From IMG/VR virus record IMGVR_UViG_2713896736_000010: DNA of 11,251 nt; one strand, 5' to 3'. The translations under genes were made by a program, and so were the position numbers. The notes below the pieces were generated by a model. That model made no database searches. It was not told the origin of the DNA and saw only the letters and a list, made by a program, of their open reading frames with translations. Numbering within the stretch: the first letter of the stretch is position 1; every line of letters begins with the position of its first letter. The DNA is from a virus (lineage: Duplodnaviria; Heunggongvirae; Uroviricota; Caudoviricetes). Of the stretch, positions 113 to 8,554 are shown piece by piece.

Positions 113-146
113 CATGCCCCGCACTTCCGTACGGGGCATGTTCTTT
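113..146. terminator. GC-rich stem-loop (CATGCCCCG / 10-nt loop / CGGGGCATG) next to the stop codon of the giant gene; plus-strand side followed by TTCTTT
   Basis: Perfect 9-bp inverted repeat at 113-121 and 132-140 read directly. On the plus strand it is followed by a T-rich run (141-146). On the minus strand it lies immediately 3' of the giant ORF's TAA (145-147) but has no clean U-tract. Strand of action is ambiguous. Confidence 0.35.
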
Positions 147-3100
147 ACTCCACTCCCACTTTTTTGTTGTACTCGCGGTTAAACCGATCCACGGCAATTT
201 TCATATCCCGCTCAACCGATTTCACCATCGCCGACTGTTGCGCCAGACTGAGAGTACTGTCGGCGTAAATGGCATCACGCTGTTTACGCAAATCCTTCAG
301 TCTCTTCCGGGTATCCTGCATAAGCCCGTTCATCGACAATTTTCCGTTGTTCTCGTCAATGAACGCCGTTCTTTCTGCACCGGTCAGACTCTTCAGCTCT
401 GCGTGATACTGCGCAACCTCTGTCATCCGGTCGTACATCTTCTGCTGGTCAGCATACGGCATCACCTCACCTGAAATTTTCCCCAGGAAGGGCACCTGCT
501 GCTCCGGTATATCAATACCGTTCAGCGATTTCACCGCCGCATCCGTGGTTTTGGAAATGAAGCGCCCTGTCCCTCCGGAGATATAGTCAATCCAGTATTT
601 CAGTGATTCCGGCGTGACATCCACCGCACCGGAACGGTACTGGCTGCCACCAGAGAACGCATTCAGCCAGGATGCAAACGCCTTGTACGCTTCTGGCGTT
701 GAACGTCTTCCCAGCTGGCTGTCAGGTTTTGGTGTACCAAACGGCATGTTCTCCTGGTAAATCTGCGCCCCCATGAAGTTTTCGTTCATGGCAAGATTCG
801 CAAACGGACGCAGAATTGTCGGTGCTGCATTTTTCAGCAATGCCCCGGACAGTGTTTCCGACGTTTCACTGCCCACAGGACTGAATGCCCCAAGCACACC
901 ACCAACAACATTACCGGCAGCACGTGAAGCGGTCAGGTCGCCCGCTGCCATCCCTTCGGCTGTGTGACCAAGCAGGAAGAAAACGTTGTACCCGTAAGGC
1001 AGAGGAATACTCCAGTACTCTCCGGCCTTGCCCCCGAACACCGATTTCATAATGACGAGGTTACGCTCTTTCACATGAGACGGCACCTTGTCATACCAGT
1101 TAACCCCGTCATCATCCTCCCCCGCAACACTGCGGTTAAGCGAGCCAAGCAGATAACCCGCTCCCACAGCTGCAAGCGCGATTTTCTGCGGTACATTGAG
1201 ATTCTTCCAGCGAAGGCGCTCCAGTAACGGCCCGTCGCCATTAAGATGTCCGAGCGTTCTCACCAGGTTTGCGGTCCCCTGAATGCTGGCGTTGGCGAAC
1301 ATGTACAGCGAGTTCATCAGCGCTCCCTGCTCACCACGACGGTTAAAGTTCACCGTCATGTTTTTGGCAAGAGACGCCGCCTGCTGGCGTGACAAACCGG
1401 CATCACGGGCGTGTTTATAGGCAGAAAGACGCAGAGCGTTTTCAACCGCCCCGTTGGCATCCTCGACAAGGTTAAGGAACGAATTCCATGCACCGATACT
1501 CTGGCCTTTCCATCCTCCCTTCGCCAGCGATACAAGGCGATCCATTTCCTTCTGCTGGCCTTCAAGGTCACCCATGTTAAACCAGCCGGTTTTACCTCCG
1601 TCCTCAACAAACTCTTTCCACACCTTCTGCCACTGTGCACCTTTTCCCGTGAGGGTTTTACCACGCAGACTGGCGTATACGGCTGACATGGCAGAACGGC
1701 TGTCTTTCACCACAGCCAGGGCGGATAAGTTATCCAGCCCTTTCAGTTTACCGTCGCTCCTTCCCTGCTCCGCCTTCAGGTTCATCACCGCCGTCTGCAC
1801 GTCACGGATGAAGTTACTGACCAGGAATTCCGGGTTATACGACGTGTTCACCGTTGCCAGGAAGCGGTTAACTTTCCCCAGCGTACGAACAAAGGCATTG
1901 CTGGTTTCCGGTCCCATATTCTTCATCGCACGCATCAGGCGCGGATCATGGAGTTTGATGTAGTACGTTTTGCCGTTCTTTTTGGTGGTGAAGTACCGGT
2001 CTGCCATCATTGCCATCGGTACAGGGCGTTCGACAACTTCGCGAATGGTTTCACCAGTTTCCTGGTCCTTGCGCTCTGCAATCGTCCGCATGGTATCCGG
2101 TCTGTCATCGGTGAATACCTGCCAGTAATCCTTGTCGGGATTATCCTGCACCAGTTTCAGGAAGGCGTTACCCACTTCGTTTTTGCGATGGCGGATCAGC
2201 GATTCGCTCAGGTCCTGTATCGCCTGAGTGGACGGAGACTGTGCCCGGGATGCACGCCCCATGGCTTGCCTGCTTTCACGTCCGCCGATGGTGAAGCCCT
2301 TACCTGTACGGGGCAGTGACACCACACCGTCAACATCCTGACCTTTCAGGGGAACGTAGTAACGGTAGGCGTTCTGCCAGGCATCCACCACACCGTTCTC
2401 TTCAAGTCCGGCCTCACGGATAAGCTCACGGCGACGGGCCAGCATATCGTCAATAATCCCTGCCAGACGGTCATACTGTGCCTGTTTGCCACTGTTACGT
2501 ACACGCTGCATGATTTCCGCCGCTTCCGCGTTGGTCATCCCCGAACCGCCGTCCGGCATTTTCGGGTTGATTTTCGCGATATGCGCGTTACGTTCCGGCG
2601 CGTGACGGGCGTAGAGGTACTCATCCAGATCGGCCTGCGCAATTTTGTAGTCCGCCAGTAATTTAGCCAGTGGCTGAACGTAGCGCTCCTTCATCACGTT
2701 CAGGTCGTTTTCCGCCTTCCCGTGGAAGAGTTCTTCCGCCATATAAGCGTTGTTACTGTCGTCCACTTTGCCGCCAGTTTTACGGATATTCTCCTGAACA
2801 GCTTTCAGCACCTGGAATTTATCCTGCATCTGGCGCACAAAACGCGATGCAATTGTCTCTTCCGGTGTCAGACTGCTGGTACGGGAGTAATACGGCCCCT
2901 TGCGAATATCTTCAGGATAGAGTATTTTATCCGCAGAGCCGCGATAAGAATGTTCCCCTTTGGGCAATTGGAGCCCTCTGTGCAGAAGGTTATCGCGGCT
3001 TAATTTTTCTCTCCGGTACAACGTTAACCCGGTCATTTCCATACTCTTCAGTTTTTTTCCATTTTCTGTACCGTAAACAGAAGCTACCTTGTTGATTTCC

Positions 3101-6100
3101 AGACGCGACCGGACAGCCTTCATGTGTACCGCTGACACCACCGGATCACCATTTTTATCCACGGCATCAAGCAGCATCACAACCGCATTTCTTTCTGTCG
3201 CTGAGCGGTAAATTGCATCCGGATCGTGCATCAGTTCCGGTAGTCTCTCGATAACATCCATCGGCACCACATGTTTCACACCATTGGTGGCCTTCCGCAC
3301 AGTATCGCGGGAAATAACCAGCGGCAAATCCGGTGCACCAAGGTGACGCAATACCGGCGGCGTACGCCCGATGTTTACCGTTAAATCTGTGGTGCGCAGA
3401 GATTTCATCATTCTGGCAAGGTCATCACGATAACGCTCGCCCTCACCTTCCGGCACTTTGAACGGATCACGTTTACCACTACGGGAGTACTGAGACGATG
3501 CGCCCGCGCCATCCTCACGCGGCGTGTAACCTTCCCGCACACGCTGGCCTAACGTACGGATGGTCTCGCGAACAAGTCTGATATCGTTCAGTTCCGTCGG
3601 CTTCAGTAACCCCGTACGACGCAGTACCCCTTTGACCAGGGCAACAACACGCTCCCATGCCGCCACGAATTTATTCGGCTGTTTCTCCGCCATATGTGCC
3701 AGAAATTCACCCGCCTGTACTTCCGGTGATTCCTTACCATAGGAAGCATCAACCTTACGCCAGGCTTCACGGATGGTGACGTTATCACTGTCGCGGGTTT
3801 TCAGCACGGTTTTGATAATCGTCTGATATTCCGCTGGTGTGACAACATGCTCCATGGCATGGTGAATGATCTCGTGACGCAGCTTCTCGCGAACGGTCCG
3901 CCCGTCAGGGATGTTATCCGCCACCAGGACAATTTCTCGTTTATCCGGACGATAGAATGCGTGCACCCTGCCGTAACCATCGAACAATTCACCCGCCAGC
4001 GCTTCAGCCTCTTTCTGTGACTTCACCACACGGACCTTCAGGTCACTGTCCTTAATGCCGCTCATCACGCCACGGGCAACCGCTTCAACCTGCGGGACCG
4101 GGCTGCCTTTGGCTTCCGCACTACGGTTAACATCCGAAATGAGATTACCTTCAGGTGTGCGGGTAACGCCCTTACGGGAATAAAACGCAACGCCCTTGTC
4201 CGTCTCACGGGTTTTCAGGGTGCGGAACAGGTGATCGAATGCCTCACGAATACCGCCATCCAGTTCCGCATTCGTCGGATAAGCGTAGGTGTTATCTGTG
4301 TTGTGCTCAGGTGCCTTACGGATATTGACCAGATAATCATTCTCCACGCCAGCTTTACGCGCTTTATCCTGAACATAACGTTCAAAGGCACGTGCCGCCA
4401 TTTCAACATCCGTTGACCAGTACGGTTTTGAGCGCACCTCATCGAGAAGCGCTGAACGACGCGGCATGTCACTGTTTTTAATGGCCTCAATGACACCTTT
4501 AAACGCGTCGTAAACCTCCTGACGCACCGGATATTCAGCGTCAACAAACCGGCCGTCTTTAAATACGCGCTTGACACGCCTGGCTTCCGTCATAAAGTCA
4601 CCACCTGACGTAATCTTCCCGTCAGTGGAAACATCATAACGACCAAAATAATTATCCAGTGAATGGAACCATTCGTGCGCCAGCGCACCCGGTCCGTTAC
4701 CTTTTGTCAGGTTGATTGCCACCTCACCCGGCTCATAGTGTGCTGCCGCCTTACCCTTACCACGGGCACCAAATGCCAGGCCAAGACGACCGTTCAGGGA
4801 AAGCGCTTTTGTCGGTACATTCAGTACTTCCGCAAGGTCATGCAGCGAGTCATAAGCCCGGTTCAAATCAGCCTGACGACGCGGACCTTCCACGTAGTTA
4901 CCAAACTGCACACCACGAAAACCAAACGCATCGCTGAACTGCTTCGGTGAGACATCACCCTTGCGGCGTTCTGGCCCGGTACGATCGCGGTTGGTGGCGT
5001 TACGCTGCTCCTCACGCGAAATCTCACGCATCTCCTTCACATGACGAACAAGCTCATCACGATGTGAATCAATGTACTTACGCGCATCACTGGCTGACTT
5101 AAAGCCACCTCTCACCCGCATTTTGTTTTTGCCGTAAGCAATAAAAATATCGCCACTGCGGGTATTCCGGTATACGTCAAAGCTGATTTTGTCATCCGGT
5201 GACAGTGCTGTTTTTTCATCACCTTTCGCCTGTGATTTTTCCTCCTGCTCTGCAAACCAGGCTTTTGCCTTTGTCAGTAATTCATCCCTGCTTTCCGAGA
5301 AAAAGAGATTGCTCCCCTTATTGTCCTTATTGCGCAGTGAATAAAGTTTCCGTGGCGGATCGTAACGTTTCCCTCCTGCCGCCTGATACACACCGGATAC
5401 CACCCGATAAGCAGAAGCCTTGTCTATCTGCGAGGGTGGCAGCGTGCGTAACAGTTGCCATGTGTCCGCGTAACGGGCGGGCATTCTGCCTTCCATCCAC
5501 TCAGCAAGCCGTCCGGCAGTCACTTTTCCTTCCAGCATTCCCGCCACACTTGTGCGGATACTCTTTACACTCTCCACCCACTTCACTGCATTGAGTTTCG
5601 TCTTCGCCGGAATATCGCTACGATACAGCGCTATCATTGCCAGGGTATCAGCATCGGCACCTTCGTTCGCCAGTTTTGCGTAGTCCGGTTTCGGGAACAG
5701 TTTGCTCAGCGGTTGCGTGACATAATCCCTGTCTTCCAGCGTTTTACCCAGTGTTTCGGCAAGCTGTGCATAACGGTGTTTTGCCGCGCCCTTAATTTCT
5801 TCACCAAAGTCTTCAATTTTTTTGCCCCTGACTTCACCTCCGCGCACGGTAGCTTCCCTGTCAGTAGAGACTGTTGTTTCAGATTCAGGTGCGATTGTCT
5901 CAGGCTGCAGGATGTCACGATTTTCTCTGGCCTGCCGACGTACTTCTGCCTGCTGTGCGAGCTCAGGCAGTGAGTCCCGTACAGTGCGGGGAAGTGATTC
6001 AGGCTGAGGCATACGAACATTACGCGCAATGTCAGGAGCCGGTAGCCCTTCACGTACCGGTGCTGTCGCGTTCTGCGCATCCGGTGACGGCAGACCCCGA

Positions 6101-8520: not shown

Positions 8521-8531
8521 ACAGACTCCAT

Positions 8532-8554
8532 AAAAAAACCGGCACAATGGCCGG
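8532..8554 (-). terminator. Short GC hairpin followed by T7 tract between the 421-aa gene and the giant gene (possible intrinsic terminator or attenuator)
   Basis: Minus-strand sequence CCGGC-CATTGT-GCCGG (plus 8539-8554) followed by TTTTTTT (plus 8532-8538), lying between the TAA at 8589-8591 and the GGAG/ATG of the giant gene. Confidence 0.35.

Follow-up and report, generated by a model that had tools for sequence, protein, structure and literature searches.

The window analysed here is a stretch of 11,251 nucleotides of tailed-phage DNA (IMG/VR record IMGVR_UViG_2713896736_000010), most of it taken up by one giant gene on the minus strand. It is the right end of a Traversvirus Shiga toxin (Stx) prophage: positions 1-11124 match the right end of Escherichia phage PA28 (Traversvirus) at 100% identity and ~200 Stx1/Stx2-converting phages at 95-100%. 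In PA28 the late operon runs from terminase through portal, major head, tail fibres, Lom and four small genes to the giant gene, which comes last, its 3' end ~120 bp from attR. The giant gene is co-oriented with this virion operon, has been kept together with it across 186 phage records, and makes up ~14% of a short-tailed Stx phage genome (8.4 of ~61 kb). We consider its product likely to be a giant internal virion "polyvalent" protein of the 933W/Sp5/phi24B-type short-tailed Stx phages, acting by the mechanism proposed below. The gene and its parts are as follows (aa, amino acids):

145..8520, minus strand: giant gene, likely encoding a polyvalent protein; 2,791 aa plus stop; open reading frame (ORF) from an ATG with a GGAG ribosome-binding site; orthologues in PA28, Sp5 and phi24B
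7156..8013, minus strand: conserved N-terminal module, aa ~170-455 (exhaustive HMMER search; hydropathy)
5821..7155, minus strand: low-complexity linker, aa 456-900, acidic and E/Q/A-rich, then Pro/Arg-rich (composition)
5377-5820, minus strand: conserved helical region before LPD5, aa ~900-1048, co-occurring with LPD5 in homologues
4927..5376, minus strand: LPD5 domain, aa 1049-1198 (Pfam PF18799, E 5e-43)
4207..4926, minus strand: first zincin-like metallopeptidase, aa ~1199-1438 (H1261, HEWFH 1282-1286, D1289, EMAARAFE 1373-1380)
3541..4068, minus strand: second zincin-like domain, aa ~1485-1660 (HEIIHH 1549-1554, window 3859-3876; GEFLAHMAE 1604-1612)
3010..3279, minus strand: MuF-C/PBECR domain, aa 1748-1837, predicted to be an RNase with the Barnase-EndoU-ColicinE5/D-RelE (BECR) fold
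148..2868, minus strand: conserved C-terminal module, aa ~1885-2791, mostly helical (39-sequence alignment; AlphaFold2 model)

The giant ORF is real. Under the strand's base composition (stop frequency 0.046 per codon), 2,800 stop-free codons would arise by chance with log10 P ~ -57, and the product is 100% identical to PA28 YP_009601966.1. An earlier reading of the window made from the sequence alone (the sequence-only reading) had described an uninterrupted ORF of ~2,800 aa at 145-8547. The ORF stands, on the minus strand; its start moves. The TTG at 8547 has no ribosome-binding site and is an artefact of the ORF rule, and it was dropped in favour of the ATG at 8520, which is preceded 7 nt upstream by GGAG and from which RefSeq begins the identical protein of PA28. 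This gives a product of 2,791 aa, and the residue numbers of the sequence-only reading are 9 too high.

That reading had proposed a polyvalent or ejection-type protein, and the proposal gains support from three sides: domain content, a genomic setting in the terminase-portal-capsid-tail operon of an Stx prophage beside attR, and the packaging of a 96%-identical orthologue, gp47, in phi24B virions (bioRxiv 10.64898/2026.04.10.717836). Pfam assigns four families to the product, all with scores far above the gathering cut-offs: LPD5, LPD1 (PF18796, aa 1359-1438, E 7e-24), MuF_C (PF18819, E 1e-17) and LPD38 (PF18857, E 2e-48, aa 2474-2679, window 484-1101). Zincin folds are assigned in addition to both HExxH regions, whose motifs lie where they had been placed (HEWFH at window 4663-4677 and HEIIHH at 3859-3876).

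The first HExxH region sits between LPD5 and LPD1. Across 42 homologues, H1261, HEWFH 1282-1286, D1289, E1373 and E1380 are each at least 90% conserved, and the NCBIfam model CLCA_X matches aa 1180-1435 with E 1e-43, a match that stays under the family cut-off. Together, the conserved residues and the CLCA_X alignment identify LPD1 as the C-terminal segment, bearing the Glu helix, of a zincin domain of ~250 aa, in which HExxH lies on one helix, Glu on a second helix downstream, and the core is a beta-sheet. A metallopeptidase (MPTase) variant with a His ending strand 2 and an Asp three residues past HExxH has been described (Iyer 2017, PMC5512222); the first zincin is that variant. In the second region, E1550 and H1553 are each conserved at 98% and E1605 at 100% in 51 homologues. 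The family motif here is RHExxxHH, one residue longer than in the giant protein, and, with most relatives carrying HExxxH, the canonical HExxH spacing of the second motif may be incidental. An HExxxH clade of MPTases has also been described (Iyer 2017, PMC5512222). Pfam searches of 24 second-zincin segments gave no family, only weak matches to Peptidase_M76 and MATCAP.

Downstream of the zincins, the MuF-C domain belongs to the MuF-C/PBECR group by sequence and by its BECR fold, and is predicted to adopt a BECR/RelE-like RNase fold. A phi24B preprint reads MuF-C as a metallopeptidase; here the zincin folds are two separate regions, which Pfam does not model as peptidases. As stated there, a peptidoglycan-cutting MuF-C metallopeptidase is rejected: the fold is of RNase type, and Pfam scans of the giant protein returned no peptidoglycan-hydrolase or lytic-transglycosylase (SLT/LT) family.

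The C-terminal module shows 47 invariant columns in its alignment of 39 sequences. An AlphaFold2 model of the C-terminal 951 aa (predicted local distance difference test 81, predicted template-modelling score 0.77) is mainly helical with a small beta domain. Transmembrane helices had been proposed in this part. Gly-rich, moderately hydrophobic segments are indeed present at aa 2447-2467 and 2502-2551 (ATG numbering); with Kyte-Doolittle maxima of ~1.2 they form no clear transmembrane spans, and we regard them as candidate membrane-active helices.

The N-terminal part has the composition previously ascribed to it: aa 10-440 are 15.5% A and 10.7% G, the acidic linker at aa 440-580 is 15.6% E, 15.6% A and 12.1% Q, and the Pro-rich linker at aa 735-900 is 12.7% P. 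Pfam assigns no family to the N-terminal module, which carries Gly/Ala-rich, moderately hydrophobic segments at aa 180-208 and 405-426, and has no match in the linker at aa 456-900, which is alignable in close relatives only. LPD5, which follows, has been rated potentially enzymatic (Iyer 2017, PMC5512222). As a side observation, the LPD5-region profile (positions 94-225) weakly matches PDB chain 9mt4_Q (E 0.018); the 9mt4/9mt5 chain is 450 aa long and named "Structural protein," and a genuine match would make this the first LPD5-like structure solved in a virion.

The sequence-only reading had found no helicase, methylase, RNA-polymerase or transglycosylase signature, and Pfam and NCBIfam scans of the giant protein likewise returned none of these families. 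A product so large, with linkers of low complexity and a toxin-type domain resembling an RNase, would also be in keeping with a bacterial surface or secreted protein (an adhesin, autotransporter or polymorphic toxin) that lies at the prophage edge by chance, and the phi24B GenBank note mentions a SignalP "leader." The same scans found no adhesin, autotransporter, RHS, secretion or surface-anchoring domain, so that the adhesin- or autotransporter-type homology named earlier as evidence against a polyvalent protein is absent from them. With the gene co-oriented and conserved with the virion operon in the 186 phage records and the phi24B orthologue detected in purified virions, we give this explanation almost no weight.

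Two orthologues carry experimental knowledge. The first, ORF80/ECs1242 of phage Sp5 (VT2-Sakai; 2,793 aa), is 97.2% identical in amino acid sequence over its full length. Its deletion abolishes both plaque formation and lysogenisation, making it essential; DNA is still packaged and the heads look normal (Mondal 2016, PMC5155283). The second, phi24B gp47 (vb_24B_48; 2,807-2,811 aa), is the 96%-identical protein noted above and has the same Pfam domains. In gel-slice mass spectrometry of phi24B it reached 10,962 counts, a figure exceeded by the capsid protein alone (17,998); the signal was strongest in the top gel slices and tailed off downwards (bioRxiv 10.64898/2026.04.10.717836). The portal, tail and fibre densities of the cryo-EM model do not include it, and the preprint's authors propose that it is a capsid-internal ejection protein (bioRxiv 10.64898/2026.04.10.717836).

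The Sp5 data have been read differently. Mondal et al. inferred a role for ORF80 in tail formation and noted a COG1483 AAA+ match (PMC5155283), so that the giant protein would mainly serve to assemble the tail or form a structural part of tail or neck, perhaps as an assembly factor that uses energy, instead of being an ejected effector. That the DNA-filled heads of the ORF80 deletion mutant bind no anti-tail-fibre antibody agrees with such a role, as do the COG1483 match and the giant gene's place with the tail genes. An AAA+ ATPase, however, is ruled out for this protein: a Walker A expression ([AG]xxxxGK[ST]) finds no site in the 2,791 aa, and ATPase families are absent from Pfam results at E <= 0.1 and from NCBIfam results. 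The abundance of gp47 in phi24B virions, combined with its absence from the resolved portal, tail and fibre densities, also argues against a tail component, and two putative peptidases, an RNase-like domain and the swappable cargo of relatives fit an effector carrier, not a tail scaffold. We judge a chiefly tail-assembling protein unlikely; because the tail-fibre phenotype does not suit a pure ejection model, an assembly role is kept as a rival or as an additional function.

The polyvalent-protein interpretation draws further on the protein's family. A word-indexed search with the N-terminal 460 aa returned E. coli and Salmonella fragments only, and exhaustive HMMER searching was needed to reveal the relatives: with aa 1-460 it gave 101 cluster representatives, 63 of which are proteins of 1,300-4,665 aa. 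In the giant proteins that were mapped, the N-terminal module lies inside about the first 470 residues. No other piece is shared as widely among the giant relatives as the second zincin; several have it immediately before the C-terminal module, which is detected in a subset of the N-module relatives mapped. Relatives of the C-terminal module occur in Vibrio phages (40% identity), Ralstonia GP4-like phages, Burkholderia phage Bcep22 and a Methanosarcina virus. Dozens of phage proteins of 2,000-4,700 aa show this recurrence of N-terminal module, second zincin and C-terminal module. What lies between the modules varies: a methyltransferase, a Sno/SNF2-type helicase, ddrB-ParB, an ADP-ribosyltransferase (ART), LPD39 or LPD5/LPD1. 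Judged by these sequence comparisons, the conserved part across the family is a chassis (N-terminal module, second zincin and C-terminal module), not the effectors. PHROGs 26030 and 20690 were also matched, with coverage limited to the N-terminal third of the giant protein.

The varying cargo raises another possibility, namely that the giant protein is packaged solely to counter restriction or defence, working like P1 DarB, and contributes nothing to the physical delivery of DNA. Its C-terminal module is common to proteins called "DarB-like antirestriction" (PHROG 10089, Bcep22, JC1), the methyltransferase/helicase, ART and ParB-nuclease cargo of relatives is typical of counter-defence, and the idea matches the framework of Iyer 2017 (PMC5512222). 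Yet the Sp5 deletion leaves no infectivity and a defective particle, which goes beyond what losing an accessory anti-restriction factor predicts; the giant protein itself has no methylase or helicase; and it is the chassis that the family conserves. A purely counter-defence role thus seems to us improbable.

We favour the following course of events for a polyvalent protein of this kind. The gene would be expressed late, as the last of the structural operon, and its product enclosed in the capsid, for the most part as a polypeptide of very large size. At infection, the giant protein would be expelled through the tail with the DNA. Its N-terminal module, second zincin and ~900-aa LPD38 C-terminal module would form a delivery chassis that serves encapsidation, tail passage and envelope engagement and carries lineage-specific cargo; in the Stx phage lineage that cargo would be LPD5, the CLCA_X/LPD1-type zincin peptidase and the MuF-C/BECR RNase-like domain. 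The Gly-rich amphipathic helices of the N- and C-terminal modules probably engage the envelope during ejection, perhaps helped by small virion proteins encoded alongside. Probable substrates of the zincins after delivery are the polyprotein or host targets, and that of the RNase-like domain, early in infection, is host RNA; LPD5 may contribute an activity besides those of the zincins and the BECR domain.

A more far-reaching version can be put forward tentatively. The N-terminal module, HExxxH zincin and C-terminal module may constitute a self-contained, single-polypeptide "ejectosome chassis" of 933W/GP4/Bcep22 podoviruses that replaces ejection proteins of the T7/P22 type, threads exchangeable cargo of multi-hundred-kDa size through the tail and frees it by a built-in peptidase. 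If so, cargo would be freely swapped between lineages: an RNase-like domain with LPD5/zincin in one, methylase/helicase, ART or ParB nuclease in others.

Several observations weigh against an ejected polyvalent protein. The protein has no detectable sequence or fold similarity to the ejection proteins of T7, P22 or N4. Foldseek and sequence-profile searches returned no solved-structure analogue of the C-terminal module, those three systems included, and PDB searches with the full protein and with three segment alignments gave chance-level matches only. The heads of the Sp5 ORF80 deletion mutant are not labelled by anti-tail-fibre antibody (PMC5155283), which is unusual for ejection-protein mutants and suggests an assembly role. 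That the gp47 signal is concentrated in the top slices of the gel points to little cleavage ahead of packaging, and self-cleavage is hypothetical. Peptidase activity of the second zincin is uncertain on its sequence, the motif being HExxxH in most relatives and its first His absent in three. Finally, the hydrophobic segments are weak (Kyte-Doolittle values <= 1.4).

Around the giant gene, the window holds the following features:

8589..9854, minus strand: 421-aa upstream neighbour; PHROG 601; Sp5 ORF79/ECs1241 by position; phi24B gp48
9865..10620, minus strand: two small genes of 97 aa and 150 aa; PHROG 594 and 596; same conserved block at the late-operon end
10617..11124, minus strand: 3' part of a 218-aa gene (PA28 gp52; phi24B gp51); alignment to the PA28 and F765 alleles stops at 11124
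11125..11251, plus strand: IS629/IS1203 left end, into the beginning of OrfA; matches the IS629 end of Stx2a_F765 at 127/127 bases
1..25, no strand: attR, the prophage right end; PA28 misc_recomb attR at locus 1-25, corresponding approximately to window 1-22

No Pfam family is assigned to the four genes that lie upstream of the giant one (421, 97, 150 and 218 aa; window 8589-10620 and 10617-11124). Sp5 ORF79/ECs1241, the counterpart of the 421-aa gene, is essential (Mondal 2016, PMC5155283), and the phi24B mass-spectrometry table flags the 421-aa ORF at 47852-49114 (gp48) as a virion protein, as it does the 150-aa and 218-aa homologues gp50 and gp51; gp48, gp50 and gp51 are absent from the preprint's main text (bioRxiv 10.64898/2026.04.10.717836). 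The C-terminal half of the 97-aa product (window 9865-10158, minus strand) is a Gly-zipper hydrophobic tail with Kyte-Doolittle values up to 1.76; it could be a small membrane-active internal protein. Its phi24B homologue, gp49, gave a low virion signal and was treated as a contaminant (bioRxiv 10.64898/2026.04.10.717836). Some of its RefSeq homologues are named "bacteriocin." With neighbours flagged as virion proteins and absent from the main text, the five-gene block looks like a cassette of unlocated virion proteins, and probably it is one of internal virion proteins. A similar run of small virion proteins precedes the giant gene in Bcep22-like phages.

IS629 cuts the 218-aa gene, the fourth upstream of the giant gene, after about codon 50 (junction 11124/11125). 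This junction occurs in one of 5,426 complete E. coli genomes, that of O157:H7 Rafaela_II. By gene order the interrupted gene is Sp5 ORF76, deletion of which sharply lowers both infectivity and lysogenisation; the prophage of the window may thus be impaired.

Further observations concern the giant gene itself. Directly after its stop codon lies a GC-rich inverted repeat (window 113-141; CATGCCCCG ... CGGGGCATG) with no T-run, and a consensus terminator scan found no intrinsic terminator 3' of the gene, this repeat included. The phi24B GenBank record places three small opposite-strand ORFs within its giant gene (7692-8015, 10167-10547 and 10898-11269), and comparable antisense ORFs of 60-170 aa are present in that of the window; most likely they are annotation artefacts of a long GC-rich gene. 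In a large protein collection, the E. coli entries for the giant protein are mostly "partial" fragments of up to ~1,660 aa, with some fragment clusters exceeding 2,000 members, a sign that contig ends in draft assemblies often interrupt the gene.

Shiga toxin genes are carried from one E. coli to another by short-tailed Stx phages, and in these phages the giant protein is both essential and among the most abundant virion proteins. Its two zincins and BECR RNase-like domain on a conserved chassis give active-site and domain-swap experiments. The additions made here are modest: the start-codon correction, the assignment of two peptidase regions to MPTase variants, an RNase-like MuF-C, the absence of a P-loop and the chassis pattern of N-terminal module, second zincin and C-terminal module.

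The protein itself is already known and is not a new family. It has been annotated by RefSeq, Pfam and PHROGs and discussed in the literature; PHROG 616 matches it end to end, its RefSeq name is already "LPD5 domain-containing protein," and its Sp5 orthologue was studied in 2016, so that the suggestion of a distinct family in the sequence-only reading does not hold. Sp5 ORF80/ECs1242, at the same end-of-late-operon position, is two residues longer; phi24B gp47 is the orthologue proposed as an ejection protein, abundant in the virion and unseen by cryo-EM.

Among known systems, the closest general description is that of the polyvalent proteins of Iyer 2017. The giant protein has their LPD1, LPD5, LPD38 and MuF-C/PBECR domains and two of their MPTase variants, and it combines several unrelated effector domains in 2,791 aa with LPD/hub domains and a phage virion-gene context. 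The main text of that study contains 0 occurrences of Stx or O157 phages (Iyer et al. 2017, PMC5512222).

The ejection proteins of other short-tailed phages (T7 gp14/15/16, P22 gp7/16/20 and the N4 virion RNA polymerase) resemble it in outline, being packaged in a short-tailed virion and needed for infectivity. T7 and P22 divide the task among three medium-sized proteins, whereas the Stx phage protein is a single 2,791-aa chain. Sp5 ORF80 is needed for infectivity, as an internal protein of the T7/P22 ejection type would be, but its mutant heads lacked the tail-fibre label. The N4 polymerase is also giant and carries an MPTase (Iyer 2017, PMC5512222). The Stx phage protein has neither an RNA polymerase domain, as in N4, nor a transglycosylase domain, and Foldseek and PDB sequence searches were negative.

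P1 DarB is built on a methyltransferase and helicase core that the giant protein does not have. The sequence-only reading had called the protein unlike DarB-type injected proteins, and in this it finds no support: the ~900-aa C-terminal module is common to the "DarB-like" virion proteins of Bcep22-like and Ralstonia phages. The Bcep22 homologue is annotated "DarB-like antirestriction," and PHROG 10089 ("DarB-like") shares only the LPD38 C-terminal module with the giant protein. Against Bcep22/Ralstonia-type homologues the module is 27% identical over ~770 aa (E 1e-51 to 1e-53). Bcep22 gp75 and JC1 gp69, of 4,500-4,600 aa, share it; in the 4,515-aa JC1 protein LPD38 lies at the C terminus, and its gene closes the virion module, behind those for small virion proteins. 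The gp69/gp75 proteins of Bcep22-like phages are virion-associated by mass spectrometry and occupy the same operon position as the giant gene, and these phages have portal, capsid and head-closure homologues in common with 933W. The difference lies in the cargo: a lytic transglycosylase, methyltransferase, SNF2-type helicase and LPD3 in the Bcep22/JC1 proteins, none of which the giant protein has, and LPD5, zincin/LPD1 and MuF-C in their place. The giant protein of the Stx phages is a cargo-swapped relative of the Bcep22 "DarB-like" proteins.

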